A stretch of DNA of 64,000 nucleotides from Spirochaetota bacterium. GTDB taxonomy: Bacteria; Spirochaetota; UBA4802; UBA5550. The position numbers and the translations under genes were made by a program. Location: positions 155,078 to 219,077 of the forward strand of contig JAFGBT010000006.1 in assembly GCA_016933025.1 (NCBI GenBank), in the 5' to 3' direction. The notes beneath the pieces are model-generated. The model made no database searches. It had not been told where the DNA came from and saw only the letters and a program-made list of their open reading frames with translations. Shown piece after piece: positions 11,481 to 47,666 of this stretch; the first letter of the stretch is position 1, and each line of letters starts with the position of its first letter.

Positions 11481-11485
11481 GGGGG

Positions 11486-30240: not shown

Positions 30241-30352
30241 TCTTTTCTCTTAAGCCCCCTCCGGGCGTTGCACTGAACGGTTCAACAGGCTTGTCCTGAG
30301 CTTGCCGAAGGGCTCACCACAGGCCTGTCGAAGTGGGGTTTGGGGGGATGGT
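30241..30352. repeat. G/C-tract modular repeat copy R5
   Basis: AAGCCCCCTCCGGG ... GTGGGGTTTGGGGGGATGG modules. Confidence 0.5.
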
Positions 30353-30360
30353 TCTCAGAA

Positions 30361-31518
30361 TCATTTCGGCTTCTTCCTGCCGTGAAGTATCATGTCTGTC
30401 CACCAGCACCCGCCGAATCCTGTGCTGAAGGCGAAATTTACGTCCGGCACCTGCCGGCCCTCGGCCTTACCCATCACCTGCATCGCGGCCTCTGCGCACC
30501 GGATAAGCCCGGTCGCGCCGATCGGGTTGCAGGATATAACGCCGCCGGACGGGTTAATGGGGAGCTCACCCCCCATGTCGGTATTCCCGTCCCAGATGTA
30601 CTGCGGCGCCTCGCCCGGGCCGACGATTCCCATGTCCTCTATCCAGATGAGCCCGCCGAACGAATAGGGCTGGTACAGCTCGATCACGTCCAGCTCCTTC
30701 CGGGGCTCTTTGATGCCGGTTTTCTTCCATATCTCCTGCGCGCCCTCCCGCATGCTGGTGAGGCGGCCGTAATCGGCGTCCCCCAGGTAGGTGTAGGAGT
30801 GACGCGCCGCGGTCGCCCATATCCAATCCGGCTTCGGCGCGATCTTCTCCGCGAGTTCCCCGCTCGCCATGATGACCGCGCAGGCGCCGTCCGTGCGCGG
30901 ACAGACGTCGAGTAGATGTATCGGGTCCGCCAGCATCGGCGACGCCAGGACCTCCTCCAGAGCCACCTCCTTGCGGAGCTGGGCGTGGGGATTGTTCATC
31001 GCATGCCTGCGGTCCCGCACGCTGACGCGCGCGCCGTCCCGATCGGTCGCGCCGTACCGTGCCATGTAGGCCTGCGCCTCGGCGGCAAGGCCCGATATGG
31101 CGCCGGCAAACACCAGGCGGTCCCATATCGGATCGAACGCCGTGGTGATGGCGCCGGTCGTGTCCGACTCTGAATTCTTCTCCCAGCCGATTATCAAAAC
31201 TTTATCGAACATGCCCGACGCCACAAGATGGTACCCGCCGATCGCCACGGTGCACCCGGTCGTCCCGCCGGTCGTGAGCTTGATGATCGGCTTCATGGTC
31301 CCGCCGGAGCCGTCAACGCTCCAGCAGTCGACATAGTTTATTCCCTCGAAATGGTCCATGTTGCCAATGACGACGGCGTCGATATCCTTCATTTTCAGGT
31401 CAGCATCTTGAAGGGCGCGCACCACCGCCTCGTTTATCAGCTCCTGCCCGTTGACGTCGGGGCGATGGCTCTTATGGAACGTCTGGCCGGTTCCTACAAT
31501 CGCAACTCGTTTTCCCAT
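30361..31518 (-). CDS. SCP2-type thiolase-like protein, subfamily A (Cys present at the nucleophile position)
   Basis: TTGGTTGCTVAIGG...LVASGMFD...IGWEK; C-terminal GGVISCNPIGATG. Confidence 0.85.
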   Translation of the reverse strand: MGKRVAIVGTGQTFHKSHRPDVNGQELINEAVVRALQDADLKMKDIDAVVIGNMDHFEGINYVDCWSVDGSGGTMKPIIKLTTGGTTGCTVAIGGYHLVASGMFDKVLIIGWEKNSESDTTGAITTAFDPIWDRLVFAGAISGLAAEAQAYMARYGATDRDGARVSVRDRRHAMNNPHAQLRKEVALEEVLASPMLADPIHLLDVCPRTDGACAVIMASGELAEKIAPKPDWIWATAARHSYTYLGDADYGRLTSMREGAQEIWKKTGIKEPRKELDVIELYQPYSFGGLIWIEDMGIVGPGEAPQYIWDGNTDMGGELPINPSGGVISCNPIGATGLIRCAEAAMQVMGKAEGRQVPDVNFAFSTGFGGCWWTDMILHGRKKPK

Positions 31519-31529
31519 GGCTTCTCCTC

Positions 31530-32672
31530 CTACCTGTCCCCCAGGAGCCAGACGCAGTGCGACTGGCCGCCCAGACCGTTCACCCCGTGGACGAGGCCCG
31601 TTCTCGCCTTCTTCACCTGAAAGCCGCCCGCTTCGCCCCTGATCTGCCTGACCACGGCGGCCATGCTGTACAGACCGGCGGCGATAACCGGATGACCCGA
31701 CAGGAGCCCGCCCGAAGGATTTACCGGAAGCCTGCCGTCAATATTGTACTCCCCTTTTTCAAGATGCCTTCCCGCCGACGATTCATCGGCGAGGCCCATC
31801 TCCTCGAGCCACATGAGCTCCTGGTAGGTAAAGGCGTCGTGTATTTCAGCAACATCGATCTCCGTGCGCGGGTCTTTTATCCCCGCCATCGCGAATGCCT
31901 TCTTCGCCGCCTCGGTGAGCGACCTGGCTCGCGAAAGATCCCGGTCACCGAAGAAAAAAGAGTCGGCGCAGAGAGATACTCCCCTGATCCACACCGGCTT
32001 CTTCCTGAATTTCTTCGCAACCGACTCATGGGCAATGACAACCGCCGCGCACCCGTCTGAGACCGGCGAGCAGTCGAGCTTTCGGAGCGGATCTGCTATC
32101 ATCTCGGAATCCAGGACGTCTTTAACCGTGATATCCATGGGGAGCTGGGCGTGAGGGTTCTTGAGCGCATTGCCGTGGTTCTTCACCGACACCATCGCCG
32201 TCTGCTCGCGCGTTGTCTTCGTCCGGTGCAGGTAGGCATTCGCCTGCATCGCGCACGCGGTAATCATGTCCATACCGAGCATCCGCTCGTAGATCGGGTC
32301 GAAGGCGCAGTTCGTTATCAGGCTCGACACGCTCTCCGATCCCTTGGAATGGCCCGTCACCAGGGTTGTTTTGTACGATCCCGAGAGGCACCTTGCCATG
32401 CCGTAAAAGGCGCCGTACGTTCCGTCGCCCTCCACGCAGGAGACGTTTTTGTGCGCGGCGCCGCTCGCGTCGCCGACGGCCATGCAGGATATCGTTCGCC
32501 CGTCCCAGAAATCGCTTGATGTGGTGACGACATTGTCGATGTCGTCGATGGTCATGCCGGCGTCCTCGAGAGCCCCGTTCACGGCCTGCCATGCCATGTC
32601 GGCAAAGGTCTCACGTACCTTCCTCTTCTCGATCTTGACCGTCCCGACGCCTACTATCGCTGCTCTGTCCAT
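31530..32672 (-). CDS. SCP2-type thiolase-like protein, subfamily B
   Basis: Thiolase fold (YGMARCLSGSYKTTLVTGHSKG...NPSGGLLSGHPVIAAG); 11-nt gap to the subfamily A partner. Confidence 0.85.
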   Translation of the reverse strand: MDRAAIVGVGTVKIEKRKVRETFADMAWQAVNGALEDAGMTIDDIDNVVTTSSDFWDGRTISCMAVGDASGAAHKNVSCVEGDGTYGAFYGMARCLSGSYKTTLVTGHSKGSESVSSLITNCAFDPIYERMLGMDMITACAMQANAYLHRTKTTREQTAMVSVKNHGNALKNPHAQLPMDITVKDVLDSEMIADPLRKLDCSPVSDGCAAVVIAHESVAKKFRKKPVWIRGVSLCADSFFFGDRDLSRARSLTEAAKKAFAMAGIKDPRTEIDVAEIHDAFTYQELMWLEEMGLADESSAGRHLEKGEYNIDGRLPVNPSGGLLSGHPVIAAGLYSMAAVVRQIRGEAGGFQVKKARTGLVHGVNGLGGQSHCVWLLGDR

Positions 32673-32687
32673 GTCTGCGCTCCTTTT

Positions 32688-33155
32688 CTATCGTACCGGC
32701 CTGAAATGGGATATATCGCGGATGGTCCCCTTCCGCTCTTCGGCGAAGACCGCCTTCACGCGCATGCCGATGCTCACGTCTTCCGGCTTAACATCGCCCA
32801 GATAATGGAGCAGGGCCGTGTCCGCGCCGTCCAGCTTCACCAGCCCCCAGATGACCGGCGCCTTCAGCTCCCGGGGAATTGACGCGAATTGCCGCCGGGC
32901 GACCGTGAACGAGAGAAGCGTCCCCTCATCGGATACATCCACCCACTCGGTATCGCCGGTGAAGCAGGCCGGGCAGCTCTTGCGCGGCGGGAGATACGTC
33001 TTCCCGCAGGTCATGCATCTCGTCGCGATGATTTTCTTCTCGTCCCTGAGAGAGATGAAAAACCTGGACGCCGTGTCCCCCGCCCACCATGAATAGGGGA
33101 TATTGATCATGCTCTCGTATACCATCGGCTCAATGCCCTTGAATTGGTCTGTCAT
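32688..33155 (-). CDS. DUF35 family protein (Zn ribbon plus OB-fold)
   Basis: CMTC...CPAC ribbon; OB-fold. Confidence 0.8.
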   Translation of the reverse strand: MTDQFKGIEPMVYESMINIPYSWWAGDTASRFFISLRDEKKIIATRCMTCGKTYLPPRKSCPACFTGDTEWVDVSDEGTLLSFTVARRQFASIPRELKAPVIWGLVKLDGADTALLHYLGDVKPEDVSIGMRVKAVFAEERKGTIRDISHFRPVR

Positions 33156-33277: not shown

Positions 33278-34048
33278 CTATCTTCCTATAATATACCGGT
33301 GCGGGTCCACCTGCTCGCGGAGGATCCGCAGTTCATCCGCGTGCGGGGGCTCGGTATCCGTGAGCCTGTCGGCCCACATCAGCTCGAACCCGCAGTTCGC
33401 CTGGATGTCCTCCCGGTCATAGCCGGGATTGACGCTCAGAACCTTCATCCGCTTCGATATCTCATCGAACCCCATGATCGCCATGTTGGTGATGATCCGG
33501 TAGGGCCCGGTACCCTTCGGCAATCCCGCCTCGTAGCGGGAATTCCCGCCCTGCAGATAACCGGGCGAGGTGATGAAATCGCACTTTTCGGTGAATCGCT
33601 TGGCGTCCTGCGGGGTCATCATCATGGTCCTCCAGCAGAGGGAGGCCAGGTCGTTCGCCCCGCCCGATCCCGGAAAGCGGACCTTCGGCCTCGCGTGGTT
33701 ATCGCCGATCATCGTCGAGTTGATGTTGCCGTACATGTCGATCTGCGCGCCGCCCAGGAAGGTGTAGTCCACCATCCCGCGCTGGCATGTCTCCATCACG
33801 TCCGGCATGGAGCTGGCGAGTATCGCCTTGTGAAAGGTCCGCGAATCGCCGACGGATATCGGCATCGAGGGCAAAAACGGCGCCACGCCGCCCGCCTCGA
33901 ACATGATGGTGAGATTGGGCGAATGCGTCTTCTGCGCCAGCATAGCGGCCGCGCACGGGGCGCCGGTGCCGACCACGACCGTCGCGCCGTCCTCCAGGTT
34001 GCGCGCCGCAACGCATATCATCAATTCCATAGGGTTATAGTCTGCCAT
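33278..34048 (-). CDS. CoA-transferase subunit B (glutaconate/3-oxoacid CoA-transferase family)
   Basis: Family I CoA-transferase beta-subunit conservation (GGAQIDMYGNIN, SGGANDLAS). Confidence 0.8.
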   Translation of the reverse strand: MADYNPMELMICVAARNLEDGATVVVGTGAPCAAAMLAQKTHSPNLTIMFEAGGVAPFLPSMPISVGDSRTFHKAILASSMPDVMETCQRGMVDYTFLGGAQIDMYGNINSTMIGDNHARPKVRFPGSGGANDLASLCWRTMMMTPQDAKRFTEKCDFITSPGYLQGGNSRYEAGLPKGTGPYRIITNMAIMGFDEISKRMKVLSVNPGYDREDIQANCGFELMWADRLTDTEPPHADELRILREQVDPHRYIIGR

Positions 34049-34049
34049 C

Positions 34050-35054
34050 TCATTTCTCCTTGTTGTTCGCGACCAGGTTCTCGATGGCGCGAAGCTTCAG
34101 GATCCTTTCGATCCCGCCGTTCAGCTCCAGGTATTCGTAAAAGTCCTTCGTGTCGAGGATTTGCTTCCGGTAAAATTTCCTGAACTCTTCCGGGTCCTTC
34201 TCAACGGTGAGCCACTCCCTCAGGTGCTCCTCGTCGGAAAAATACTCGTAGGGCATGTTGCCGGGGTAGCTCCCGAAGGGGACCTCGACCACTGCGTCGA
34301 CGCACCAGAAGGGAATGAAGGTCGCATGGGGCGTATGCCTGATTTCATCGTTCGGTATGATCCGCTCAGTGGTCAGCACAACCCGCTTCGACGCCCGCGC
34401 AAGGTCCTGGTCGGACACGGACGCGCCTAAAACGCGGGCATTGCCGTACACGTCGCACTCATGCACGTGGATGGCGGCAAAATCCGGATAAAGCGCCGGG
34501 TATGCCGCGTATTTCTGCCCGGTAAAGGGACACAGTATCTCCTTCGCCGCGCTGTAGTTAAAGGTGTCGGTGCCGAGAATGTTGCGCGCCGGCAAAAAAG
34601 AGAGCCCCATCGCCGCCGCCTTGAGCCGCCACGAGAGCGTCGCGTTGGTCCACTCGGTGAGCTTGATATTCCCGCTCTCGACGGCGCGGCGGGAACTCGG
34701 CGAAAGGCCCCGCGCCTCCAGTCCTATGATGTAGGCGATGTCGAGACGGTCGATGCAGCCGCCCCCGACCAGGATCTGCATGTCATGGGTCGAGGTATGG
34801 CCGGCAAAGGCCAGATTTTTCTTCCCCTGACGCGCGATCTCATGAAGAACGGCGGTCGGGATCCTGTTGGCCCCGAACCCGCCGATGGCTATGTAGTCCC
34901 CGTCTTTCAACAGGGTCTTCACGGCCTCCCGCACCGTAGTGACCTTGTTCACCATGGCGCGCGACTTCTGCCTGAAAAATTGACGCGCGGCGTCGGCATC
35001 CGGGTCGGAGAACAACTGGTTCCGGCCTTCCTTCAATTCAACTGGATTGCTCAT
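34050..35054 (-). CDS. CoA-transferase subunit A (GctA-like)
   Basis: GctA-like length and motifs (IAIGGFG...); 1-nt gap to subunit B. Confidence 0.8.
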   Translation of the reverse strand: MSNPVELKEGRNQLFSDPDADAARQFFRQKSRAMVNKVTTVREAVKTLLKDGDYIAIGGFGANRIPTAVLHEIARQGKKNLAFAGHTSTHDMQILVGGGCIDRLDIAYIIGLEARGLSPSSRRAVESGNIKLTEWTNATLSWRLKAAAMGLSFLPARNILGTDTFNYSAAKEILCPFTGQKYAAYPALYPDFAAIHVHECDVYGNARVLGASVSDQDLARASKRVVLTTERIIPNDEIRHTPHATFIPFWCVDAVVEVPFGSYPGNMPYEYFSDEEHLREWLTVEKDPEEFRKFYRKQILDTKDFYEYLELNGGIERILKLRAIENLVANNKEK

Positions 35055-35105: not shown

Positions 35106-36947
35106 TTATTTCTTTTCGAATAAACCATCCGCTGCCTCTTTCGCGTACATCTCTTCGATGAGGTCCCTGTACTTCTCCTGTACCACTTTGCGCTTGACCT
35201 TCAGCGACGGGGTAAGCTCGCCGCCGTTCTGCGAAAACTCGGTCTTGATGATCCTGAACTGCTTTATTCCCTCGTACCTGGCGAGGTGCGAGTTACGCTC
35301 ATCCACGTGCCTCTGCACAACCGATAGAAACTTCTGATCGTCCAGGAGGCCGGCCGGATCCCCGAAGGCGATGCCTTCCGCCTTCGCGATTCGCGCGGCC
35401 TCCTCGATGTTGATGTTGCACAGGCCGGTCAGGTACTTCCTCTTCTCGCCGATGACGATAAACTGCGTGAACAGCGGGTCCGATTTGAAGAGATTCTCGA
35501 TCTTCTGGGGCGCGACGTTCTTCCCGCCCGAGGTGATAATCAGGTCCTTCTTGCGGTCGGTGATGAGAAGGTTCCCCTCGTCATCGAACATGCCGATATC
35601 GCCCGACATGAAATAGCCGTCGGGGGTGAATGCGTCTTTCGTCTCGTCCGGAAGCTTCCAGTAGCCCCTGATGACATTCCCTCCCTTGATTAAAATCTCC
35701 CCGTCGTCCGCAATTTTGATATCCTCTCCCGGAATCGGCTTACCGGTGGTCCCGATCCGGTAATCGGCGAGGGACTGCATGGTGGCCGGCGCGGTCGTCT
35801 CGGTCATGCCGTACCCCTGGATGACGGTGATGCCGGCGGCGTTGAAGAAGCGGATGATCTCCTCGGCCGTGGGAGCGCCGGACGCGGTCATCCAGGTGAC
35901 CCGCCCTCCCAGCTTGTCCTGGAGCTTCTTGAAAATCATGGCGTAGGCGATCCTGTATTTCAGCTTCAGCCAGAATGGTATGCGCCTGTGCATCTCCCGG
36001 CGCCTGCTGATCCTGCTGCCGACCTTCTGTCCCCAGTAGAACACTCTCTGCTTGAAGGCGGACTGCTCCTGCACCTGCGCCATGATCTTCTGGTAGACCT
36101 TCTCGCAGACGCGGGGCACGGCCAGGATCATGGTGGGCCGCCTCTCCTCGAAGTCGGCCAGCAGGGTGTCGATGCTCTCGGCGTACGAGGCCGTGATGCC
36201 GCAGTACATGCCGTAGAAGTGCCCTGCGATCCGCTCGAACACGTGTGAGAGCGGGAGGAAGGGAACGGTGCAGTCCGTATCCGAGGCAAAATGCGGCCGG
36301 ATCGCGTCGAGCGACTGGACCACCCAGAAAATGTTCCCATGACTGATCATCGCGCCCTTGGGGAGTCCGGTCGTCCCAGAGGTATAGACCAGGGTCGCCA
36401 GGTCGTCCGGACCAACATCGGCCGCCAGCTTCTCGAACAGGTTCCGGTCCGCCTCCTGTTGTTTGCGTCCCAGCTCCATCAGCTCATTGAAGGAAATCAC
36501 CTTCGGGTTCGACCTGTCCGCGTCGCCATCCTCCATGACGACAATCTTCTCCAGTTTCGGGCATTTATCCGCTATCTCGAGTATCTTGGTCAGCTGGTTC
36601 TTATTTTCAGATATGATTATTCTTGATTCCGAATTGTTGAGGATGTATTCTATCTCCTCGGCCACCAGCGTCGGATATACCGGTATGAGGACGCCGCCGA
36701 TTCCCATGATCCCCATGTCGGAATACAGCCACTCGAGGCGGTTCTCGGAGAGAAGAGCCACCATGTCCCCCTTCCGTATGCCGAGATAATACAGGCCGAG
36801 GCCGGTCGCGCGCGCCCGTTCATAATATTCGTTCCAGGAAGCGCCGTGCCAAACGCCTTTCAGTTTTTTCTCTATCGCAAGTCTGTCGCCGTATTTCTCA
36901 ACGCGATTGCGGAAAACATCATTGACGGTCCTTTCTGCTGATTCCAC
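35106..36947 (-). CDS. long-chain-fatty-acid--CoA ligase (AMP-binding)
   Basis: AMP-binding motif TSGTTGLPKG; 613 aa, FadD-like. Confidence 0.85.
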   Translation of the reverse strand: MESAERTVNDVFRNRVEKYGDRLAIEKKLKGVWHGASWNEYYERARATGLGLYYLGIRKGDMVALLSENRLEWLYSDMGIMGIGGVLIPVYPTLVAEEIEYILNNSESRIIISENKNQLTKILEIADKCPKLEKIVVMEDGDADRSNPKVISFNELMELGRKQQEADRNLFEKLAADVGPDDLATLVYTSGTTGLPKGAMISHGNIFWVVQSLDAIRPHFASDTDCTVPFLPLSHVFERIAGHFYGMYCGITASYAESIDTLLADFEERRPTMILAVPRVCEKVYQKIMAQVQEQSAFKQRVFYWGQKVGSRISRRREMHRRIPFWLKLKYRIAYAMIFKKLQDKLGGRVTWMTASGAPTAEEIIRFFNAAGITVIQGYGMTETTAPATMQSLADYRIGTTGKPIPGEDIKIADDGEILIKGGNVIRGYWKLPDETKDAFTPDGYFMSGDIGMFDDEGNLLITDRKKDLIITSGGKNVAPQKIENLFKSDPLFTQFIVIGEKRKYLTGLCNINIEEAARIAKAEGIAFGDPAGLLDDQKFLSVVQRHVDERNSHLARYEGIKQFRIIKTEFSQNGGELTPSLKVKRKVVQEKYRDLIEEMYAKEAADGLFEKK

Positions 36948-37064: not shown

Positions 37065-37844
37065 TTATCTCCCCTTGAAACTCGGCCTCCGCTTCTCTAA
37101 AAACGCGGCAATCCCCTCTTTCTTGTCCTCGCTCTCCGCAAGCCCTCCGAAGAGCCGGCTCTCCAGCTTCAACCCGTCCGCCAGTGGCATCTTCCCGCCG
37201 ACCAGGACAGCCTCGATGACGGCGCTCACGGCGAGCCGGCCCTTGAACGAAAGGTCCTTCGCGAACTTCATGGCCTCCTCCATGAGGGCGGCATGGGGGA
37301 CGACGCGGTTGACCAGCCCGATCCTCTCGCACTCGGACGCCGGTATGAATTTACCGGTGAGCATGATCTCAAGCGCCCGCGCCGGCCCCAGGAGCCGCGC
37401 CGCCCGCTGGGTTCCGCCGAACGCCGGCATGATGCCGAGCAGGATCTCCGGCAGGCCCATCTGCGCCTGGTCGCCGATGAACCGCATGTGGCATGCCATG
37501 GCAAGCTCGGTGCCGCCCCCCAGACAGAGGCCGTTGATCGCGGCGATTACAGGCTTTCGAAGGTTTTCTATCAGATTTATAATCCCCTGGGCCTCTGACG
37601 TGAGCGCCTCGCCCTTCTCGCGCGTGTCGACTTCCCGCACCTTGTTGACGTCGGCCCCGACGATAAATGTCGGGCCCTCGCCGGTGATTACCACGACCTT
37701 CACCGAATCGTCGGCGGCGATCTTCTTCATCGAGCTTTCAAGCTGGCGCATGGTCTCCTCATCCAGCGCGTTCATCGGGGGGTTGTTGATCTTCAGAAGG
37801 GCAACGCCCCGCTCGTTGACTTCGTAATAGCATTTGTCAGCCAT
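37065..37844 (-). CDS. enoyl-CoA hydratase/isomerase (crotonase family)
   Basis: AAINGLCLGGGTELAMACHMRF; paralog of the 3049-3825 gene. Confidence 0.85.
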   Translation of the reverse strand: MADKCYYEVNERGVALLKINNPPMNALDEETMRQLESSMKKIAADDSVKVVVITGEGPTFIVGADVNKVREVDTREKGEALTSEAQGIINLIENLRKPVIAAINGLCLGGGTELAMACHMRFIGDQAQMGLPEILLGIMPAFGGTQRAARLLGPARALEIMLTGKFIPASECERIGLVNRVVPHAALMEEAMKFAKDLSFKGRLAVSAVIEAVLVGGKMPLADGLKLESRLFGGLAESEDKKEGIAAFLEKRRPSFKGR

Positions 37845-37917: not shown

Positions 37918-39345
37918 TCATTTCTTCCTCAATCCCATGATCGCGCGGGCCTCGTCGCAGGTGGCAATCGGCCTGCCGAGACATTCGGCGACCCCGACCG
38001 CCACCTCGACCAGCTCGTAGCTGCCCTTGGCCAGCTCGCCGTTCGGCATCCTGATATTGTCCTCCAGGCCGACCCGCATGTGCCCGCCGAGGAGGCACGA
38101 CTGCATGATGCACGGAAACTCGTCGGTGCCGACGCCGCAGGTGGTGAAGTTCGCCTTCGGCGGGAGCGCGTTCATCATCGCTATGAAGGTCTCGGCCCTG
38201 AAGGCCTGGCCGCCGGCCACGCCCCAGACGAAATTGAAGTTCATCGGATCGGTGAAGAAACCCTGCTTCGAGATCAACATGGTGTTGTCGAGCCCCCCCA
38301 TGTCATAGCACTCGATCTCCGGCTTCACGCCGTTCTCCTCCATGGCCTTGCCGAAATCCTGCAGCATGGTAAAGGTGTTCTCGAACACGTAGTCGATGAA
38401 GATCTTTCCGGTCTTCCGGTCGATGATACTGAAATTCATCGTATTGGTGTTCAGAGACGCCATCTCGGGCTTGATCTCCACGATCTGGCTGATGCGCTGC
38501 TCGGCGGTCTTGCCCATGCCGACGGCCGAGCTCAGGTTCACGATCAGCTCCGGGCTCTTCTGCTTGATGGCGTCGTGGGTCGCCCGGATCCTGTCGATCT
38601 CGTGCGTCGCGAAGCCGTTGTCCATGCGCGCGTGCACGTGCACCATGGCCGCGCCCGCCTTCCAGCACTTGTGCGCCTCTTCCGCGAACTCCGCCGGCGT
38701 GTATGGGACGCTCGGGTTCTGGTTCTTCATGGTCGCCGCGCCGGTAAGGGCGGCGGTGATTATTACTGGCTTTGACATATCCGGTTTTCCTCCCCTTCGT
38801 TTTTCCTGAGTTTCAGGCTCGTCCGACGGAACCCATTGTTTACGCAACTTGCTGCGCTCGTGTACCGACAGCGTTTCAACCGCCGGCCTGAAGTGATCGA
38901 TGTCGAGAATGGTGCTCGTCGTTTTCTCGGCGAACACCGCCTCAACCTTCATCCCTATCTTGACGTCCTCTATCTTACACTCTTCGACAATATGCAAGAA
39001 GGGCGTGTCCGCGCCTTCCAGCTTGATGAGAGCGAGGACGAACGGCGCCTTTCGCGGCAGGTGCTTGTCGTCGTAGCGCACCACCGTGAAGTTCGTCACC
39101 GTTCCGCTTGAGCCCACTTCGACCCAGTTGTCCCGTATATCCGTTAAATCCTTGTCGCAGACCTGCCGCGGCGGCAGGTACACCATGCCGCAGGCCGGGC
39201 ACTTCACTCCCATTATCTTCTTCTTGTCCCGGATCGTCGTGATGAACTTGCTGCCGACGCGTCCGGCGAAATAGCTGTACGGGAGCGCCATCTTGCCTTC
39301 AATGATGTAGCTGTCTTCATATCCCTTTATTTGCTTATCTATCAT
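37918..39345 (-). CDS. fusion protein: N-terminal DUF35 (Zn ribbon/OB-fold) domain and C-terminal BKACE/DUF849 (3-keto-5-aminohexanoate cleavage enzyme-like) domain
   Basis: Single uninterrupted frame (the ORF track reports 37918-39453). N-half GVKCPACGMVYLPPRQVC plus OB-fold; C-half starts MSKPVIITAALTGA. Start chosen at ATG 39345 with TAAGGAG RBS, 11 nt after the upstream stop. Confidence 0.6.
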   Translation of the reverse strand: MIDKQIKGYEDSYIIEGKMALPYSYFAGRVGSKFITTIRDKKKIMGVKCPACGMVYLPPRQVCDKDLTDIRDNWVEVGSSGTVTNFTVVRYDDKHLPRKAPFVLALIKLEGADTPFLHIVEECKIEDVKIGMKVEAVFAEKTTSTILDIDHFRPAVETLSVHERSKLRKQWVPSDEPETQEKRRGGKPDMSKPVIITAALTGAATMKNQNPSVPYTPAEFAEEAHKCWKAGAAMVHVHARMDNGFATHEIDRIRATHDAIKQKSPELIVNLSSAVGMGKTAEQRISQIVEIKPEMASLNTNTMNFSIIDRKTGKIFIDYVFENTFTMLQDFGKAMEENGVKPEIECYDMGGLDNTMLISKQGFFTDPMNFNFVWGVAGGQAFRAETFIAMMNALPPKANFTTCGVGTDEFPCIMQSCLLGGHMRVGLEDNIRMPNGELAKGSYELVEVAVGVAECLGRPIATCDEARAIMGLRKK

Positions 39346-39356
39346 GTCCCGGCTCC

Positions 39357-40550
39357 TTACTCGTCGATTTCGAAATATTTGATGTCCCAGATATCGCCGG
39401 CCCGTTTTTCCTCCCAGACCGGACGAACGCGCGTTCCCTTCTTCTCGTTCCATCCCATCTCGATCTTTTCAATCTGGTCCTTCCGTATAAAATGAGGGAG
39501 GGTCTCGTTGCCCTTGCATCCGTCCAGGAGAATCATGATCGACCCGTAGGGCGTCTCTCGCGCCACTCCGGTCAGCGGGTCGGGAAGAGCGTAGTAGACG
39601 ACATCCATGTACCGGACTTCTCCCTTCGGCCCGACCTCTACAAATTCAGATACGCGTACCCTGCACTCGGCGCACATCTCCCGCGGCGGGAGCTGTATGC
39701 GGCCGCACTTCGGGCACCGGTTCCCGTATATCTTTTTATCCTTCAGTCCCTTGAGGAACCTGCCCATGACCGGGCCGGTCGCGTACTTCTGGTTGACCGA
39801 GATAATCTTCTTCAACACCAGAAGCTCCTGCTCGGGTACGGCGCCGCCCATCGGGTCCTTGTATTTCTCGAACATGACCGGCCATTTCGTCTGAATGAGG
39901 TTGATATCGCCTTTGGCCGATCCCTTGCCCGCCGCCAGCAGGGTCTGCGCGTCTATCTTACCGAGGATAAAATCGACATAGTCCTTCGCGTCGTTGAATT
40001 CGAGGGTCACGGTCGGATTGCCCTCGATGGTCGTCGCAATCGTGCACTTCTTGTCCTTGACGGATACCGTCCACGTGCCGCCGTCCGGGCCGCCGAGATC
40101 GTAGGCGAACGACGCGTCCACGTCCTCCGCCTCCTCGGGCTTGAATCGCGACACGATCGTCCCGAACATGTCCTCTATGTACTCCCGGGTCGACATCTCC
40201 TTCTTCGCGATGACGAACTTGCGAAACATCCTGCCGGTCTTGCCGAACGCGCCCATGTCGCCCTCAACCTTGACCTTGCCTCCCATGAAGGCGTTCGTCG
40301 CGTCGACCTTGCCGGTGTTCACGCCGACGAAGGTCTCGCCGTCGGCGCTCATCGTCGCGACGCATCCGGTTATTCCGTCGACCCTCTCAACCGCCGCGAG
40401 CGTTCCGTTATACACGGTCACCTTCCATTTTCCTTCCCCGGCGATATCGTATCCGTACGAGGCCGTTACGCCCTGCGCGCCCTCGGGACGGAACCGTTCC
40501 TGCATGGTATTGAATATATCTTCAACTTTAATTCCCCAGTATTCTGCCAT
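39357..40550 (-). CDS. fusion protein: two tandem SCP2 sterol-carrier domains and C-terminal DUF35 domain
   Basis: Two AFMGGKVKVEGDM-type SCP2 signatures, then NRCPKCGRIQLPPREMCAECR plus OB-fold; AGGAGG RBS at the trimmed start. Confidence 0.65.
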   Translation of the reverse strand: MAEYWGIKVEDIFNTMQERFRPEGAQGVTASYGYDIAGEGKWKVTVYNGTLAAVERVDGITGCVATMSADGETFVGVNTGKVDATNAFMGGKVKVEGDMGAFGKTGRMFRKFVIAKKEMSTREYIEDMFGTIVSRFKPEEAEDVDASFAYDLGGPDGGTWTVSVKDKKCTIATTIEGNPTVTLEFNDAKDYVDFILGKIDAQTLLAAGKGSAKGDINLIQTKWPVMFEKYKDPMGGAVPEQELLVLKKIISVNQKYATGPVMGRFLKGLKDKKIYGNRCPKCGRIQLPPREMCAECRVRVSEFVEVGPKGEVRYMDVVYYALPDPLTGVARETPYGSIMILLDGCKGNETLPHFIRKDQIEKIEMGWNEKKGTRVRPVWEEKRAGDIWDIKYFEIDE

Positions 40551-40560: not shown

Positions 40561-41760
40561 CTACCAGTTGAGTTCCTTCTCGAGCATCGTGAGCACGGTC
40601 CACATCGTGCCGCCAAAGCCCGAGGCCAGCGCGTGGTTTACCGGGGTCGGGATCTGGTGATCGCCCGCGCCGCCCCGTACCTGAAGGGCGGCCTCGGCGA
40701 CCCGTACCAGCGCAGTCGCTCCGATCGGGTTCGACGCGATGACCCCGCCCGACGGGTTGATCGGCAGCTTCCCGCCTATCATGACCTCTTTGTCCTCAAT
40801 CAGCCTGAGGTGCTCATCGCCCTTGAGATCGAAAAAGTCCCTGAGCCAATCTATGGCCCACCACGATGCGGGATCGTACATCTCGAACACGTCAAAATAA
40901 TTCAACGGGTCCTTGATGTCATTCCGTTTGAAAAGCTGTTCCGCCGCGAACTTGTGGCTCTTGGTAACGGGGAACGCCCTGTTGTATCCGAAGATGGTGA
41001 ATATCTCTTCCTTGTGGATGGCGATATGGTCCCGAACCCAAACCGGCCGCCGTGACAGCTCCTTCGCCTTTTTCTCGGAGGCGTATATGACCGCGCACGC
41101 TCCGTCCGACTGAGAGCACATCTCGATCAGCTTCAGATCGCCGACGAGCTTCGGGGACGACTTGATCAGGTCGTCGATCTGGCTGAAGTCGAGGCCGAAG
41201 GCGCGGTGCGCGTTCGGGTTAAGGCACGCGTGCTTGTCCATTATGATGCGGTATGTCAGGGAGACCCTGTTGGCCCTCTCGAGGCCGAATTCCCGCGAGA
41301 CATCGTACGCCGATGACCCGGTCAGGGCCCCCGCCTGGATCTTGCGGAACCAGAGCGGGTCCGCCATGTTGGTGATGCCGGCTGTGGTGTGCCCCTCCTG
41401 CAGTTTCTCGAAGCCGATGGCCATGACGATGTCGTACATGCCCGACGCCACCAGGTTGTCCGCGGCGCAGGATATGGTTGCGCCCGACGTGCCGCCCGTT
41501 GTGATCCTGATGCTGTCCTTGCCGTAGGCGCCTGTTCCCAGCATGTGCCACATGTCCGGCTGGTGAATCATCTCGAAGAGCTCCATATTGCCGTGAACGA
41601 CACAGTCGACGTCATTCATCGTCAGGTTCGCGTCTTGCAGCGCGAGGCTGACCGCCTCGTATATCATCTCCGGCTGGTTCACGTCCTCGCGGTGGCTCGA
41701 ATGCTTTGTCTGCCCCACGCCTATTATACCGACGTTTCTGTTCTTTTTTCTGTGTGCCAT
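40561..41760 (-). CDS. SCP2-type thiolase-like protein, subfamily A (Ala at the position of the Cys in paralog 30361)
   Basis: TTGGTSGATISCAADNLVASGMYD...IGFEKL; C-terminal GGVIASNPIGATA. Confidence 0.85.
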   Translation of the reverse strand: MAHRKKNRNVGIIGVGQTKHSSHREDVNQPEMIYEAVSLALQDANLTMNDVDCVVHGNMELFEMIHQPDMWHMLGTGAYGKDSIRITTGGTSGATISCAADNLVASGMYDIVMAIGFEKLQEGHTTAGITNMADPLWFRKIQAGALTGSSAYDVSREFGLERANRVSLTYRIIMDKHACLNPNAHRAFGLDFSQIDDLIKSSPKLVGDLKLIEMCSQSDGACAVIYASEKKAKELSRRPVWVRDHIAIHKEEIFTIFGYNRAFPVTKSHKFAAEQLFKRNDIKDPLNYFDVFEMYDPASWWAIDWLRDFFDLKGDEHLRLIEDKEVMIGGKLPINPSGGVIASNPIGATALVRVAEAALQVRGGAGDHQIPTPVNHALASGFGGTMWTVLTMLEKELNW

Positions 41761-41772: not shown

Positions 41773-42918
41773 CTAAGCTTCCATTACGATAACGGCCTGG
41801 TGCTGGCCGGCGCCGCCGGTCGCGGCCTGGGCGACGGCCCTCTTCACTCCCTTGACCTGGCGGTCGCCCGCCTGACCTGAAAGCTGATAGTAGCATTCGA
41901 TAGCCCGCGCCGCCCCCCCGAGGAGGAGCGGATTGCCGTTGAGATGGCCGCCAGACAGGTTGACATTGAACTTTTCCATACCGCCGTCATCAATCCACTT
42001 ACCGCCCTTCCCTTCATCGGCAATACCGACCCCCTCAGCCCACATCGGGAGCTGGTACGCCGCGTGATCGCTCAGCTCGAAGAGCTGGACGTCCTTTCGC
42101 GGGTCCTTGATGCCCGCCCTGGCGTAGGCCCTCTGCGCGGCTTGTTTCAGCGAGAAGTTCGAGCAAAGATCCCGGTCGCCTATGAAATACCGGTCCATGC
42201 AGCTGCCGTATCCGGTGAGCCAGACCGGTTTTTTGGTGAATTCCTTGACGCGTTCCTCGCAACAGAGGAGTATCCCGTACGCCCAGTCGGTGACCGGATA
42301 CACGTGAAGTTCGCGCAGCGGGTCCGCATACATCGGCGAATTCATCACCTCTTTCTCATCCACTTGTCTGTTCTCCCGCGCGTAGGGGTTCTTCTTAGCG
42401 TTTTTCCTGGAACGGACGACTATCTTCGCCAGGTGCTCCTCGGTAACGCCGGACTTCTCCATGTACTCCCGGGCCTGCAGGGCGTCGACGTTCTGAAAGT
42501 CCATCCCGACCGGCCGGCAGTAAAATGGATCGCAGGCGAGATTGGTCGCCATCCGCCTGCTCTCTCCCTGAGACTCCTTGCAGTGCCCCATGAAGAGTAT
42601 CACATCGTCATGGCCGCTCAGGATACAGGCCATAGCGTACCCGAGCCCGTTGATGCTCTCCTGAGCCATCTTCTCTTCGCCCCTGAAGTGGGCGCCCACG
42701 ACGTCAGTCACGCCGTTGTCTGATATGGTCCGCGCATCGAACACGTCATCGGAGCATGTTATAATGTTTCTGATACCCCTTTCCATGTCAAAGGTGACGC
42801 CGGTCTGCTCCATGATAGGCTCGAAGCACTCGAGCAGCATGTTCTGGAAGCGCATGTGCGCGTATTCCGGCTCGTTCTTGACCTGCGCCACTGCGCATAC
42901 CGCTATTCTTTTACTCAT
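41773..42918 (-). CDS. SCP2-type thiolase-like protein, subfamily B
   Basis: YAMACILSGHDDVILFMGHCKESQGES aligns with the 31530 paralog; GAGGAGG RBS. Confidence 0.85.
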   Translation of the reverse strand: MSKRIAVCAVAQVKNEPEYAHMRFQNMLLECFEPIMEQTGVTFDMERGIRNIITCSDDVFDARTISDNGVTDVVGAHFRGEEKMAQESINGLGYAMACILSGHDDVILFMGHCKESQGESRRMATNLACDPFYCRPVGMDFQNVDALQAREYMEKSGVTEEHLAKIVVRSRKNAKKNPYARENRQVDEKEVMNSPMYADPLRELHVYPVTDWAYGILLCCEERVKEFTKKPVWLTGYGSCMDRYFIGDRDLCSNFSLKQAAQRAYARAGIKDPRKDVQLFELSDHAAYQLPMWAEGVGIADEGKGGKWIDDGGMEKFNVNLSGGHLNGNPLLLGGAARAIECYYQLSGQAGDRQVKGVKRAVAQAATGGAGQHQAVIVMEA

Positions 42919-43019: not shown

Positions 43020-43568
43020 TCAGACATAACAGTTCCAGAATTTTCCATTCTTAATGGCTTTTAATATGGCGTCCTTTTCGCGCTTCGAGTCGAGCTCTAT
43101 CCATGCCCGCCCGATGCCGATGAGCGTATGCGAATCGTCCGATGCGATCTTGGGATACCGGATGTTCAGCGATTCAAAAATTGTGTCCCGGAAGCCTTTT
43201 GTCGTGATCTCGACGGCGTCAAGGGGGTACATCTTCTCGAGCTCGGCCAGGCGTTCAAGAACCTGTTCCGGCGTTAGATCGTATTCGCCGATGTGATTGA
43301 ATATGTGGAGCACCTCTTCATCGCCCTCTATCTTTGACACGTGGATGTATCCCTTCACAAATACCGTCAGCTCAATCCCGTGAAAAATAATCATGTCGGT
43401 CTTGACCTGTGAATACAGATCGCGGTAATTCGGTTTCACCAGGTAGTCGTGGTCTGTAAAGGCGATAAAATCATACCCTTTTGATTCATAGGCATTGACC
43501 ACCTGCTGCGGCGTCAGCTTTCCGTCAGAGCAGGTCGTGTGAGTATGTAGACATCCTTTTAATAGCAT
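43020..43568 (-). CDS. small PHP-domain phosphoesterase
   Basis: HTHTTCSDG PHP signature; lower local GC. Confidence 0.7.
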   Translation of the reverse strand: MLLKGCLHTHTTCSDGKLTPQQVVNAYESKGYDFIAFTDHDYLVKPNYRDLYSQVKTDMIIFHGIELTVFVKGYIHVSKIEGDEEVLHIFNHIGEYDLTPEQVLERLAELEKMYPLDAVEITTKGFRDTIFESLNIRYPKIASDDSHTLIGIGRAWIELDSKREKDAILKAIKNGKFWNCYV

Positions 43569-44687: not shown

Positions 44688-46205
44688 TCAGGGTCCGAGA
44701 CGCGCGCTGATGCCGTCGGCCACGTGCGTGGAGAGCGCCATGATGGTAATCTGGGGATTCACCCCGAGCGACGTGGGGACGATGCTGCCGTCGGCGACAT
44801 ACAGGTTCTTCACCTCGAAACTTTCGCCGCTCCCGTCCACGGCGCCCCGTGACGGATCGGCCGCCATGCGGCAGGTCCCCAGGGGATGGAAGGCCATGGT
44901 CTCTATCTGGCTCGGCTTGATACGGGTCTCCAGAAGCCTGTCCGCGTCAGCGGCCGAATGGAGTACGGGCATTTTCGCTATGGCGGTGTAGACAAGCCTG
45001 GCCCCGGCCGCGAAGAAAATCTTCGAGAGATAGGCGATCCCCCGCTTGAGCTTGTCGGCATCGGCCTGCTTGATTAAATAGGTCGCGAAGATGCCCGCGT
45101 TCTTCCGGGTATCAAATCCCTTAAGCACCCTCCCCTCGGTCTCATCGTGGGCCATTATGCCGAAGACCGCCAGGCTGTTGTACTTGAGCGCCATCTCCTT
45201 GTGCTCGTACCCCACCCCCGGGAGCGCCGCCAGGAGGAGCGAGGGATGTACCATCACCCCCTCCATCATGATCCCCTCTCCCTCGAAATCGGGGATGTAG
45301 GCGCCCTGCGATACGCCCTTCCAGCCCTCGACGGTCTCGTCCATCAGGGCGACCACCCTGCCCGCCGGATGGATCTGCAGGTGCCTTCCGATGTGCCTGT
45401 TCTTCAGACCGCTCCATTTAAGGAACGACGGCGTGATCATCGATCCGCAGGAAACCACGACGACGCGCGACTTCACGCTGACGCGTCGTGTCCGCCTCCC
45501 CGTTTTCGGCTCCACCACCGAGCCTTCAACGCCCGCCGCGACGCCGCCGCTGACAATCACCCGCTCCGCCCTGCAGTTGGCATAGACCCGCGCCCCCGCC
45601 TTCACGGCCAGGGGGACATAGGTTACGTTCACGCTCTGCTTGGCGTTCTCCGGGCATCCGAACTGGCAGGGTCCGCATCCCTTGCAATCCTTAACGTTAT
45701 GTCTGAGGGGCAGGCAGGTATACCCCAGTTTATCGCAACCGCGCTTTACGATACTCGCGTTATTGCCCAGGATATCCCAGGTGAGCTCGGTGACATTGAT
45801 GATTTTCTCCACCCTGTCGAAGTAGGGACCAAGAGTATCCTCGGACATGGCTCCGAGTCCAAGCTCGTCGCGCCACCGGTCAAGGACCGGACCGGGCGTC
45901 CTGAAGCAGGTTGCCGAGTTCACCGTGCTGGTCCCGCCTATGCACTTCCCCAGGGTAATGGATATGAAGGGATTCCCCAGCGTCCCGGTTGTGCCGCCGC
46001 CGCGGTACATTGCCGACATCCCGCTTGCCGGTCTGCCGTCCCAGTCGTCCACGGTGAAGTGCCCCCCCTCCTCCAGAAGCACCACCGAATGGCCCTTCTC
46101 CGCGAGCTCCTTCGCGACCACCCCGCCGCCCGGCCCGCTGCCTATGACGCATACATCGCAGGATTCATCGATATCGCCGGTGTAGTCTTTATATGTCTTT
46201 ATCAT
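44688..46205 (-). CDS. GMC-family FAD-dependent oxidoreductase (large subunit)
   Basis: CVIGSGPGGG dinucleotide motif; GMC C-terminal region (HPLGTCRM...NLYVADGSIVP). Confidence 0.85.
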   Translation of the reverse strand: MIKTYKDYTGDIDESCDVCVIGSGPGGGVVAKELAEKGHSVVLLEEGGHFTVDDWDGRPASGMSAMYRGGGTTGTLGNPFISITLGKCIGGTSTVNSATCFRTPGPVLDRWRDELGLGAMSEDTLGPYFDRVEKIINVTELTWDILGNNASIVKRGCDKLGYTCLPLRHNVKDCKGCGPCQFGCPENAKQSVNVTYVPLAVKAGARVYANCRAERVIVSGGVAAGVEGSVVEPKTGRRTRRVSVKSRVVVVSCGSMITPSFLKWSGLKNRHIGRHLQIHPAGRVVALMDETVEGWKGVSQGAYIPDFEGEGIMMEGVMVHPSLLLAALPGVGYEHKEMALKYNSLAVFGIMAHDETEGRVLKGFDTRKNAGIFATYLIKQADADKLKRGIAYLSKIFFAAGARLVYTAIAKMPVLHSAADADRLLETRIKPSQIETMAFHPLGTCRMAADPSRGAVDGSGESFEVKNLYVADGSIVPTSLGVNPQITIMALSTHVADGISARLGP

Positions 46206-46291: not shown

Positions 46292-46747
46292 TTATTTTTT
46301 CCAGGTACACCCGTGCTCGTACCCGGTAAGGCACGCCCGTTCGTCGCTCTCGTAAAACGTCAGCATGGTTATCAGCTTGAGCAGAAGCATGATCATCCGC
46401 TTGTAAAAGAAGCGGCTCTTCTCCATCGATTCAAGAAAGCGGATCCTCTTTTCCTCGCTTAACCGCGTGAACACCTTTCCATGCCTGGTTAACGCGCCGT
46501 ACTGAACGTATTTCAGCATCACCGGGAAGAGCTTCCTGATCGATGGGTCATAGCTCATGATGAGCTCGCCGGCGCGCGGCAGGAGGTCATAATCGGCGGC
46601 GCCGGGACCGAACGCGCCGCCCCGCGGGATTATTGTGTCCATCACCGACCTGAGTATCTCGCCGCTCCCACCACGGAGCACGCCCGGCCCTGCGATCCCT
46701 TCTGTTCTCTTCATACCGATATCCCTCCGCGAGATTCTTGAACGCAC
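46292..46747 (-). CDS. gluconate 2-dehydrogenase subunit 3-like small subunit of the GMC oxidoreductase
   Basis: LRSVMDTIIPRGGAFGPGAADYDLLPRAGELI pattern typical of small subunits paired with GMC enzymes; start uncertain. Confidence 0.55.
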   Translation of the reverse strand: MRSRISRRDIGMKRTEGIAGPGVLRGGSGEILRSVMDTIIPRGGAFGPGAADYDLLPRAGELIMSYDPSIRKLFPVMLKYVQYGALTRHGKVFTRLSEEKRIRFLESMEKSRFFYKRMIMLLLKLITMLTFYESDERACLTGYEHGCTWKK

Positions 46748-46820: not shown

Positions 46821-47666
46821 TTAACCGGTTTTTTTCGCGGCCCGGCCGACCCAGTCCTCCATGCTCTTCCCGATGCCGAAGACCTTCGAGGCGAGAAACA
46901 TTATGATAAAATCCGGGACCAGGCCCCTCATGAGAGCGCCCAGGTGGAGAGTGGCCGGAATTTTGACGGTGTTGCGTCTCTTTTTGACCGCCTTCCCGAC
47001 AATGGCGCGGGCGACAATATCCGGGGATTTTATCCGGGGCAGCAGAAGCTCGCCGAGCCGGTTGAGGTGCCCGCCGGCGAACAGCCCCTCCTTGAGAAAG
47101 TGGGGATGCACCGATGCGACATGGATATCTTTACCGTCCGCAATTACTTCAAGCCTGATGGATTCGGTAAAACCCCAGACCGCCCACTTGGTTGCGCAGT
47201 AGGCCGCGAGGTCGGCTACCCCGATGATGCCGGCCGCAGACGAGATATTCACTATCCACCCTGAATTTCTCTCGTACATGCGGGGGAGGACCGCATGGGT
47301 CGTGTAAAAAATAGAGAGCAGGTTGACATCCACGACCTTTTCCCATTCTGACAACGGAACGGCGCAGAAACGGCCGTGGCGCTCGATCCCGGCGTTGTTC
47401 ACGAGAATATCGACGCCCCCCATGTCGGAAACCGCCTTGCGCACGAGTGTGAGCACCGCTTCCCTTTTGGTTACATCGCACTGGTACGCGAAAACCCTTC
47501 CGGGCCCGGCGCCCTTCAATTCCCTCACCGTTTCCTTGAGGGCCGCGGCGTTGACGTCGCAAATGGCGACATCGACGCCCTCGGCGACGAGCATGCGGGC
47601 TGTCGCGCGGCCTATCCCCATTCCGCCGCCGGTGACTATCGCTTTTTTCCCCTTGATCGACAACAT
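46821..47666 (-). CDS. SDR family oxidoreductase
   Basis: TGGGMGIGR, NNAG, Y-x3-K (YCATK) motifs. Confidence 0.85.
   Translation of the reverse strand: MLSIKGKKAIVTGGGMGIGRATARMLVAEGVDVAICDVNAAALKETVRELKGAGPGRVFAYQCDVTKREAVLTLVRKAVSDMGGVDILVNNAGIERHGRFCAVPLSEWEKVVDVNLLSIFYTTHAVLPRMYERNSGWIVNISSAAGIIGVADLAAYCATKWAVWGFTESIRLEVIADGKDIHVASVHPHFLKEGLFAGGHLNRLGELLLPRIKSPDIVARAIVGKAVKKRRNTVKIPATLHLGALMRGLVPDFIIMFLASKVFGIGKSMEDWVGRAAKKTG

Follow-up and report, generated by a model that had tools for sequence, protein, structure and literature searches.

A DUF35–BKACE gene fusion within a conserved cluster of Cys-less thiolase-fold proteins from anaerobic bacteria

A 64,000-nucleotide stretch of a Spirochaetota bacterium genome (contig JAFGBT010000006.1 of assembly GCA_016933025.1; hereafter the window) contains a gene that joins a DUF35 module to a β-keto acid cleavage enzyme (BKACE, DUF849) domain in a single reading frame (Table 1). 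The minus strand is open without interruption across 37918–39453, giving 511 amino acids (aa) when counted from the first ATG, which falls within the upstream SCP2-SCP2-DUF35 gene. The ATG at 39345 is separated from the TAA of that gene by an 11-nt gap and yields a protein of 475 aa. Homologues in the protein database are 473–476 aa long, indicating that 39345 is the real start; this length agreement and the AAGGAG box bear out the start proposed in an earlier model-written note on this DNA (the original prediction). In a Pfam search, PF05853 (BKACE) covers aa 193–472 over the whole profile (positions 1–274 of 274; 313 bits against a cut-off of 24.8) and PF01796 (OB_ChsH2_C) covers aa 74–138 (47.1 bits, cut-off 27.1), with PF12172 (zf-ChsH2) at aa 43–64 reaching 21.3 bits, slightly below its cut-off of 23.2. 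We count this profile check, which the original prediction had proposed, as passed. Both peptides that it cited, GVKCPACGMVYLPPRQVC and MSKPVIITAALTGA, are found in the translation, and its claim that one gene encodes a DUF35 module and a complete BKACE domain is supported by the Pfam matches and by homologues of the same architecture. An AlphaFold2 monomer model based on a 71-sequence alignment (mean predicted local distance difference test (pLDDT) score of 79; predicted template modelling score of 0.63) renders the DUF35 domain and the TIM barrel confidently, as two independent domains. The interval 37918–39345 is a genuine single-gene DUF35–BKACE fusion.

The same architecture recurs in many genomes. 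A GTDB scan covering one genome per species found 256 relatives, and among the best 80 of these, from which all locus counts are taken, 74 species-level loci carry the fusion uninterrupted. The carriers among these 80 are all metagenome-assembled genomes (MAGs), mostly labelled Spirochaetota/Leptospirales or Smithella/Syntrophaceae/Smithellaceae, with a few Thermodesulfobacteriota or plain 'Deltaproteobacteria', and the hosts are anaerobic inhabitants of sediments, peat and digesters. In the protein database, one entry is identical (from an NCBI 'Spirochaetes bacterium' MAG, 303-kb contig) and approximately 85 further 90%-identity clusters share the PF01796+PF05853 architecture, at 69–90% identity to the fusion. 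The search for homologous fusions suggested in the original prediction was therefore productive, and its remark that no such fusion was known holds for descriptions in the literature searched but not for occurrence, as database copies are many. A DUF35 query against a library of 50%-identity representatives was informative on the range of DUF35 fusions but missed the fused family, the representative of whose cluster is probably a stand-alone BKACE.

The concern that a lost stop codon or a frameshift, introduced by sequencing or assembly, had joined two genes gains some colour from the separate DUF35 and BKACE genes of some lineages (described below). Against it stand an open fusion in 74 independent species-level genomes and in many metagenomes, a conserved fusion length, and a linker that is variable yet always open. 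An artefact is thus exceedingly improbable, and we regard it as ruled out by this comparison with independent genomes. Between Spirochaetota and Syntrophales/Smithella MAGs (loci L010–L089 against the window) the fusion is 82–88% identical and the flanking gene order is the same, suggesting that the cluster has recently been transferred horizontally from one phylum to another; by GC composition the cluster is not clearly marked as foreign. Several MAGs have two copies.

The DUF35 part matches PDB entries 3irb (8e-10) and 6esq_E (1e-9), and AlphaFold2 models it with β-strands at pLDDT 80–91 over aa 40–155. Its zinc ribbon (aa 43–64; window positions 39154–39219) has the motif CPAC...CDKD, and orthologues have either Cys or Asp as the fourth ligand (CxxC...CxxC versus CxxC...CxxD), a variation that recalls Shy, which has a Cys3His variant of the zinc ribbon (PMC12329534). 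The charged linker that follows differs in length and sequence among aligned homologues, with the DUF35 and BKACE parts on either side conserved; modelled at pLDDT of approximately 50–57 and without secondary structure, it is predicted to be disordered.

The C-terminal part matches Kce (2y7d) at 1.8e-49 in a PDB sequence search. H236, H238 and E428 align with Kce His46, His48 and Glu230, which we take to be the Zn ligands in the residue numbering of the 2Y7D–2Y7G work, and all three are invariant in 71 sequences. S272, E345, R424 and D429 align with Kce Ser82, Glu143, Arg226 and Asp231; among the 71 homologues E345, R424 and D429 do not vary, and conservation of S272 is at least 90%. BKACE enzymes carry out an acetyl-CoA-dependent cleavage of a β-keto acid to acetoacetate and an acyl-CoA. 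Because all Kce Zn ligands and catalytic residues are kept, nearly invariantly, this chemistry is expected of the fusion, and residue conservation indicates a catalytically complete BKACE domain. The substrate appears to differ from that of Kce. Ala204 stands in place of Kce Glu14, the residue that binds the amino group of the substrate, and the NCBIfam Kce equivalog NF052387 reaches only 272 bits, its cut-off being 382. The 3-oxoadipate (200 against 350) and 3,5-dioxohexanoate (181 against 430) equivalogs likewise fall short, and with every NCBIfam BKACE equivalog below its cut-off we rejected assignment of a characterized BKACE function. Many copies of the fusion are labelled '3-keto-5-aminohexanoate cleavage protein' in public databases, a name that the Glu14 replacement and the low Kce equivalog score leave unjustified as to substrate; the subfamily is mis-annotated there as a lysine-fermentation enzyme. 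The papers on ASMC and NetSyn offer no usable active-site key for BKACE and make no mention of DUF35. The neighbours of close stand-alone BKACEs, either a TetR gene or one of the class-II-aldolase family (431 aa), are not informative on substrate. On two unrelated contigs (L001:8676–9971 and L008:6676–7971), stand-alone BKACEs of 79% identity directly follow the 431-aa F_bP_aldolase-family gene, and the two genes may form a separate conserved pair.

The surroundings of the fusion are strongly conserved. An SCP2-DUF35 gene lies immediately upstream in 66 of the 69 loci with enough sequence, and two thiolase-fold genes, Thl1 and Thl2, lie upstream of the fusion in 61 of 63. Thl1 and Thl2, and the three further thiolase-fold proteins of the cluster (Thl3–Thl5), belong to the SCP2-thiolase/'lipid-transfer protein' group, with best PDB matches to 7yvy, 6esq_A, 6hsj, BbsB 7pxp_C and Ltp2 6ok1. 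Reading the nucleophile position from alignments with three Cys-bearing thiolases (6esq_A, 6hsj and 7yvy), we found the nucleophilic Cys replaced by Gly in Thl2–Thl5 and by Ser in Thl1. Orthologues of Thl2 read GGT(V/T)G, the Gly being invariant (70/70; GGTSG in the window copy), and those of Thl4 read GGTTG in 52 of 55. At the HDCF-equivalent motif, Thl2 has an invariant MYDP(A/S) (YDPA in the window), Thl4 has YQPYS (51/55 orthologues), Thl3 has YDAF in most orthologues and HDAF in the window, and Thl1 has SDHA.

Steroid side-chain retro-aldolases use the Tyr that opens this motif (YDHF in TcLtp2, YDCY in CtSal) as their catalytic base, and in Ltp2 and Sal an aldolase dimer has on its flanks two DUF35 domains contributed by the hydratase of the preceding step, ChsH2 or Shy (PMC12329534). 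Thl2 and Thl4 share with these enzymes both the first-position Tyr and the absence of a nucleophilic Cys. The original prediction had taken the products of 40561–41760 and 41773–42918 for thiolases, an assignment that does not survive the loss of the nucleophilic Cys from both and the aldolase-type Tyr of Thl2; judged from these motifs, the Thl1/Thl2 partner is more likely an aldol-lyase of the Ltp/Sal type. The cluster contains two Thl pairs and four DUF35 domains, fitting the α–β–β–α arrangement of DUF35–Sal and DUF35–Ltp2. From gene order and this stoichiometry, we infer that Thl1/Thl2 would pair with (SCP2)2-DUF35 and DUF35~BKACE (a tilde joins fused domains), and Thl3/Thl4 with the free-standing DUF35a and DUF35b.

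Related loci indicate that the two halves of the fusion can be uncoupled. In five more divergent loci (L078, L079, L081, L084 and L085), orthologous DUF35 and BKACE are adjoining separate genes. The split-form DUF35, of approximately 155 aa and ending in ...DHFEPV, is 57–61% identical to the DUF35 of the fusion, and the split-form BKACE, with its own GGAGG box and ATG, is 73–79% identical to the BKACE of the fusion. In all five pairs the genes share one reading frame, with 2–6 stops of mixed type between them. The mixed stops and the separate GGAGG and ATG led us to reject recoding or read-through and identify these pairs as ordinary separate genes, their shared frame having probably survived from an ancestor common to them and the fused form. 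The linker of the fusion thus corresponds to the spacer that parts the two genes in the split forms.

Other loci keep the slot and change its content. At L009, the module starts with a stand-alone BKACE (77% identical), and a DUF35~MaoC fusion follows the SCP2-DUF35 gene in place of DUF35~BKACE. A metagenome scan with this DUF35~MaoC protein uncovered many loci of the order PHP–Thl1–Thl2–AMP-ligase~SCP2~DUF35–DUF35~MaoC–ACAD (acyl-CoA dehydrogenase), so that DUF35~MaoC occupies the slot of the fusion in L009 and in many of the loci L091–L121. Four loci (L099, L116, L119 and L096) carry a tandem second module, Thl1–Thl2–SCP2DUF35–DUF35–ECH (enoyl-CoA hydratase), and in L099, L116 and L119 a bare DUF35 fills the slot; in L099 and L116 it is 65–72% identical to that of the fusion and has no BKACE nearby. 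Among close DUF35 relatives elsewhere, the fusion partner is a MaoC, SCP2, AMP-ligase or thiolase-like domain, and tandem DUF35-DUF35 proteins also exist. Because one slot can hold bare DUF35, DUF35~MaoC or DUF35~BKACE, the DUF35 of this family acts, as far as these sequences tell, as an adaptor whose cargo can be exchanged, BKACE being one such cargo, specific to certain lineages. In L099 (4804–7857) and L116 (5235–7952), the SCP2-DUF35 slot of the related module is filled by giant open reading frames of 906–1018 aa, each of which has an AMP-ligase region and two or three SCP2-like regions and ends in a DUF35, as another cargo on the same adaptor.

Table 1 Features of the fusion gene and its cluster in the window
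Feature	Position in window	Strand	Basis
DUF35–linker–BKACE fusion gene, 475 aa + stop	37918–39345	−	Open reading frame, translation, Pfam, homologue lengths
AAGGAG ribosome-binding site, overlapping the TAA (39359–39357) of the upstream gene	39353–39358	−	Read from sequence
DUF35 module, aa 1–155	38881–39345	−	Pfam; PDB sequence matches; AlphaFold2 pLDDT
Charged linker, aa 156–189 (~34 residues)	38779–38880	−	Alignment of homologues; AlphaFold2; split forms
BKACE (DUF849) TIM-barrel domain, aa 190–475	37918–38778	−	Pfam, 313 bits; alignment to Kce 2y7d
PHP-domain protein, 182 aa; first gene of the operon in nearly all related loci, whatever the phylum	43020–43568	−	Pfam
Thl1, Cys-less thiolase-fold partner subunit	41773–42918	−	Pfam, PDB match, alignment
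Thl2, Cys-less thiolase-fold, invariant 'MYDP', candidate aldol-lyase catalytic subunit	40561–41760	−	Pfam, PDB match, alignment
SCP2-SCP2-DUF35 protein, 398 aa	39357–40553	−	Pfam, SCP2 ×2 + zf-ChsH2
Crotonase-family enoyl-CoA hydratase (ECH)	37065–37844	−	Pfam ECH_1, 210 bits
Long-chain-type acyl-CoA synthetase (AMP-ligase)	35106–36947	−	Pfam AMP-binding
Family-I CoA-transferase (A 34050–35054; B 33278–34048)	33278–35054	−	Pfam CoA_trans
Second module (DUF35a 32688–33155; Thl3 31530–32672; Thl4 30361–31518; DUF35b 29752–30240)	29752–33155	−	Pfam, alignment, synteny
SpoIIE/PP2C-like protein, 290 aa, weak match only	28866–29738	−	Pfam
TetR	28185–28811	−	Pfam, synteny
ACAD1; ACAD2; ACAD3	26976–28163; 25754–26929; 21430–22587	−	Pfam, synteny
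MaoC1; MaoC2	25253–25690; 24855–25289	−	Pfam, synteny
Thl5, 478 aa	23328–24764	−	Pfam, synteny
Cryptic DUF35-like gene, 196 aa	22726–23316	−	Translation; no Pfam match

All cluster genes from PHP to ACAD3 lie on the minus strand, with core gaps of 7–12 nt, in the order PHP–Thl1–Thl2–SCP2SCP2DUF35–fusion–ECH–AMP-ligase–CoA-transferase A/B–DUF35a–Thl3–Thl4–DUF35b–SpoIIE/PP2C–TetR–ACAD1/2–MaoC1/2–Thl5–cryptic DUF35–ACAD3, and this gene order is conserved across phyla. We propose that the SCP2-SCP2-DUF35 protein is a second adaptor, carrying lipid-binding domains. The cryptic 196-aa protein adjoins Thl5 and has a CxxxxC...CxxC ribbon and an OB-like region, making it probably a fifth DUF35-type partner. 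The AMP-ligase and the CoA-transferase alternate between loci, with one or both present, which suggests that both activate the substrate acid. The original prediction had given the CoA-transferase a part in a β-keto cleavage route; its presence is not constant, and the pattern across loci makes a substrate-activating enzyme likelier than an obligatory handler of acetoacetate. The CoA-transferase has weak matches to NCBIfam 3-oxoacid CoA-transferase families. By Pfam and synteny, the core cluster contains no 3-hydroxyacyl-CoA dehydrogenase and no Cys-bearing thiolase.

Several further genes were noted in the window. The PHP protein bears a weak NCBIfam likeness to 3′,5′-nucleoside bisphosphate phosphatases, and the SpoIIE/PP2C-like gene directly follows DUF35b in most loci. 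GMC-family FAD oxidoreductases (1350–2720, 44688–46205 and 52602–54281) and short-chain dehydrogenases/reductases (SDRs; 46821–47666 and 62531–63343) surround the cluster; the GMC gene at 44688–46205 is accompanied by a Gluconate_2-dh3-like small subunit (46292–46747), and in several Spirochaetota loci a GMC gene stands directly before the PHP gene. The GMC oxidoreductases and SDRs hint at an alcohol or sterol-like precursor. A further thiolase-fold gene fragment (63347–63946, minus strand) runs off the right end of the window, and flagellar genes (FliI-like ATPase, FliH, FliG and FliF) at 7905–13186 on the minus strand fit a spirochaete host.

The fusion is the fourth gene of a conserved unit, Thl1–Thl2–(SCP2)2-DUF35–DUF35~BKACE, for which we propose the following mechanism. 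By analogy with solved DUF35 complexes, the Thl1/Thl2 heterodimer would be flanked by two DUF35 domains, one bringing the two SCP2 lipid-binding domains and the other bringing BKACE, to form a lyase–carrier–BKACE assembly. The lyase would cut a β-substituted 3-hydroxyacyl-CoA, as the heteromeric Ltp3–Ltp4 does, and release acetyl-CoA (or propionyl-CoA) together with a free β-keto acid. The tethered BKACE would then spend the lyase-derived acetyl-CoA to convert the β-keto acid into a shortened acyl-CoA and acetoacetate, such that re-thioesterification of the chain would need no ATP, no 3-hydroxyacyl-CoA dehydrogenase and no thiolase. A route of this kind agrees with the absence of the dehydrogenase and thiolase from the core cluster. 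Ltp3–Ltp4 acts on the hydrated, carboxylated C24-branched sterol side chain and releases acetyl- or propionyl-CoA, and the carboxylate left behind 'must be thioesterified', in a step that 'should be mandatory' (review, PMC6678751); on our reading of that chemistry, the leftover carboxylate is a β-keto acid. The SCP2 domains, paired ACADs and paired MaoC hydratases make a bulky or branched lipid acid the likely substrate.

We attach different weight to the parts of this proposal. That the DUF35 part docks BKACE on Thl1/Thl2 is probable. The original prediction had suggested a tether to the neighbouring thiolase-like complex, and the tether itself draws support from strict synteny, from the split and exchanged-cargo forms and from DUF35 biology (PMC12329534), but the partners are not thiolases. 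Chemical coupling, in which the β-keto acid and the acetyl-CoA of the lyase are both passed to BKACE, is more tentative, and for the overall reading of a DUF35-tethered BKACE that recycles acetyl-CoA onto a β-keto acid released by a Thl1/Thl2 aldol-lyase we consider the balance to be even.

A number of observations pull against this interpretation. The assignment of Thl2 and Thl4 as aldolases is one of motif equivalence only, and the third motif residue of both is Pro, as opposed to His in Ltp2 and Cys in Sal. The zinc ribbon of the fusion scores below the Pfam cut-off and its fourth ligand in the window is Asp. Neither the 64-kb window nor the conserved cluster contains a carboxylase, which a carboxymethyl branch would call for. 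Module variants with bare DUF35 and no BKACE nearby point to BKACE as an accessory rather than a core step, and stand-alone BKACEs of the same subfamily, 77–92% identical, sit in unrelated contexts, such that the enzyme may have a general rather than a pathway-specific substrate. Finally, the long flexible linker speaks against tight channelling, an argument that has also been made for Shy–Sal (PMC12329534).

Other assignments of chemistry were considered for the same genes. In a methyl-ketone or isoprenoid route, the lyase would cut a 3-hydroxy-3-methylacyl-CoA to a methyl ketone and acetyl-CoA, a carboxylase encoded elsewhere would make the β-keto acid, and BKACE would convert this to an acyl-CoA and acetoacetate. 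Much of the cluster would suit such a route, including the Cys-less lyase-type subunits, the SCP2 domains, the long-chain ligase and the paired ACADs and MaoC hydratases; the nearby GMC oxidoreductases and SDRs could oxidize an alcohol precursor, and the hosts are anaerobes of fitting habitats. We nevertheless consider it unlikely, as the carboxylase that it demands is missing from the window and from the conserved cluster, and with a soluble enzyme acting in between there would be less reason to tether BKACE to the lyase. BKACE catalyses an acyl exchange, a reaction reversible in principle, so the enzyme might also run in the condensing direction, from acyl-CoA and acetoacetate to β-keto acid and acetyl-CoA, or interconvert acetoacetate and acetyl-CoA pools to supply the Thl complexes. 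The frequent presence of a 3-oxoacid-type CoA-transferase in the cluster would accord with this, but the remaining content is catabolic (ACADs, hydratases, ligase and TetR) and no consumer of the free β-keto acid is evident downstream, making a condensing role rather improbable.

An alternative that concerns architecture has DUF35 working in cis, binding acyl-CoA for BKACE or regulating it, rather than docking on Thl1/Thl2. DUF35 was first proposed as an acyl-CoA-binding module (PMC2954200), and the two independent domains of the AlphaFold2 model are compatible with such an arrangement. However, related loci encode the orthologous DUF35 separately from BKACE, by itself, or joined to MaoC in this very slot, and BKACE, for its part, is also found as a stand-alone protein; it thus does not need DUF35 in cis. 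Every DUF35 complex listed in PMC12329534 has DUF35 bound to a thiolase-fold protein, and the strict synteny with Thl1/Thl2 points in the same direction. A function purely in cis is accordingly quite improbable, and docking of BKACE on the Thl1/Thl2 lyase remains the reading that we prefer.

Taken one step further, the cluster could encode an unrecognized route by which strict anaerobes degrade lipid acids that are β-branched or bulky (isoprenoid-, sterol- or alkyl-glutarate-like); in this route a DUF35-built modular mega-complex on Cys-less thiolase-fold heterodimers, with SCP2, acyl-CoA ligase, MaoC or BKACE as cargo, would achieve C–C cleavage without ATP, dehydrogenase or thiolase. This extension is doubtful; if true, it would fill the open step after Ltp3–Ltp4-type aldol cleavage. 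Since many Smithella/Syntrophales and Spirochaetota from methanogenic habitats carry the cluster, its pathway may be of importance for the anaerobic turnover of recalcitrant lipids. More immediately, the fusion joins the BKACE and DUF35 fields: it offers a candidate partner and physiological role for a large, highly conserved BKACE subfamily, suggests how the free β-keto acid of an aldol-lyase could return to the CoA pool without ATP, and presents DUF35 as a general plug-in adaptor with exchangeable cargo.

To our knowledge, BKACE enzymes have so far been regarded as soluble stand-alone catalysts acting on free β-keto acids; DUF35 has been seen as a scaffold of thiolases and HMGCS or as a tether of MaoC hydratases. 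The literature searched contained no paper treating DUF35 together with BKACE or DUF849/PF05853, and nothing relevant on Smithella, Syntrophaceae or Spirochaetes with Kce or on DUF35 with syntrophy or alkanes. The SCP2×2-DUF35 co-adaptor and the heteromeric, Cys-less, YDP-motif partner are likewise undescribed in that literature.

The closest known systems are ChsH2 (MaoC-DUF35)–Ltp2 and Shy (DUF35-MaoC)–Sal of steroid side-chain degradation, in which, as in the fusion, a linker joins DUF35 to the enzyme of an adjacent step. The fusion resembles them in having DUF35 connected by a flexible linker to an enzyme and encoded beside a thiolase-fold partner; paired ACADs and paired MaoC hydratases are common to these systems and this cluster, and in related loci a DUF35~MaoC of the ChsH2/Shy kind takes the very slot of the fusion. 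In those systems DUF35 brings the enzyme to a dimeric, Cys-less aldolase of thiolase fold, each dimer binding two DUF35 domains, an arrangement that we extend to the present cluster by inference. The differences are that a BKACE TIM barrel takes the place of the hydratase as cargo; that the proposed partner is a Thl1/Thl2 heterodimer with the motif YDPA, in contrast to YDHF of Ltp2 and YDCY of Sal; that a second adaptor carries SCP2 domains; and that the hosts are uncultured anaerobes. Because DUF35 is already established as a fused tether by ChsH2 and Shy, newness lies in the BKACE cargo. Towards the Kce/BKACE family, the fusion matches the full profile and keeps the Kce Zn ligands and catalytic residues, but lacks the Kce Glu14 and falls below the cut-offs of the Kce, 3-oxoadipate and 3,5-dioxohexanoate equivalogs. 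NCBIfam lists a bifunctional Kal–Kce fusion (NF052389), indicating that an N-terminal fusion to BKACE is tolerated; the N-terminal partner there is a second catalyst, whereas here it is a docking domain.

Ltp3–Ltp4 resembles Thl1/Thl2 in being encoded by two adjoining, different thiolase-fold 'lipid-transfer protein' genes, which form a heteromeric lyase acting on a β-branched acyl-CoA (PMC6678751); we judged the sequence relation only through NCBIfam 'lipid-transfer protein' models, all of them below cut-off. Unlike the actinobacterial system, the cluster has no carboxylase, and no BKACE has been reported there. In the archaeal thiolase/HMG-CoA synthase/DUF35 complex and the KT/DUF35 fatty-acid synthase assembly, DUF35 similarly scaffolds a second enzyme to an acetyl-CoA-handling thiolase-fold dimer (6esq_E, matched by the DUF35 part; bioRxiv 10.1101/2024.07.05.601840), but the archaeal thiolases keep their Cys and condense, and the archaeal DUF35 is free-standing, with recruited enzymes that are not covalently fused. 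SCPx, the thiolase–SCP2 fusion of peroxisomal branched-chain β-oxidation, likewise combines a thiolase-fold enzyme with SCP2 carriers for bulky or branched acyl-CoAs; in contrast to SCPx, the SCP2 domains of this cluster would be supplied non-covalently, through a DUF35 adaptor, to thiolase-fold proteins without Cys.

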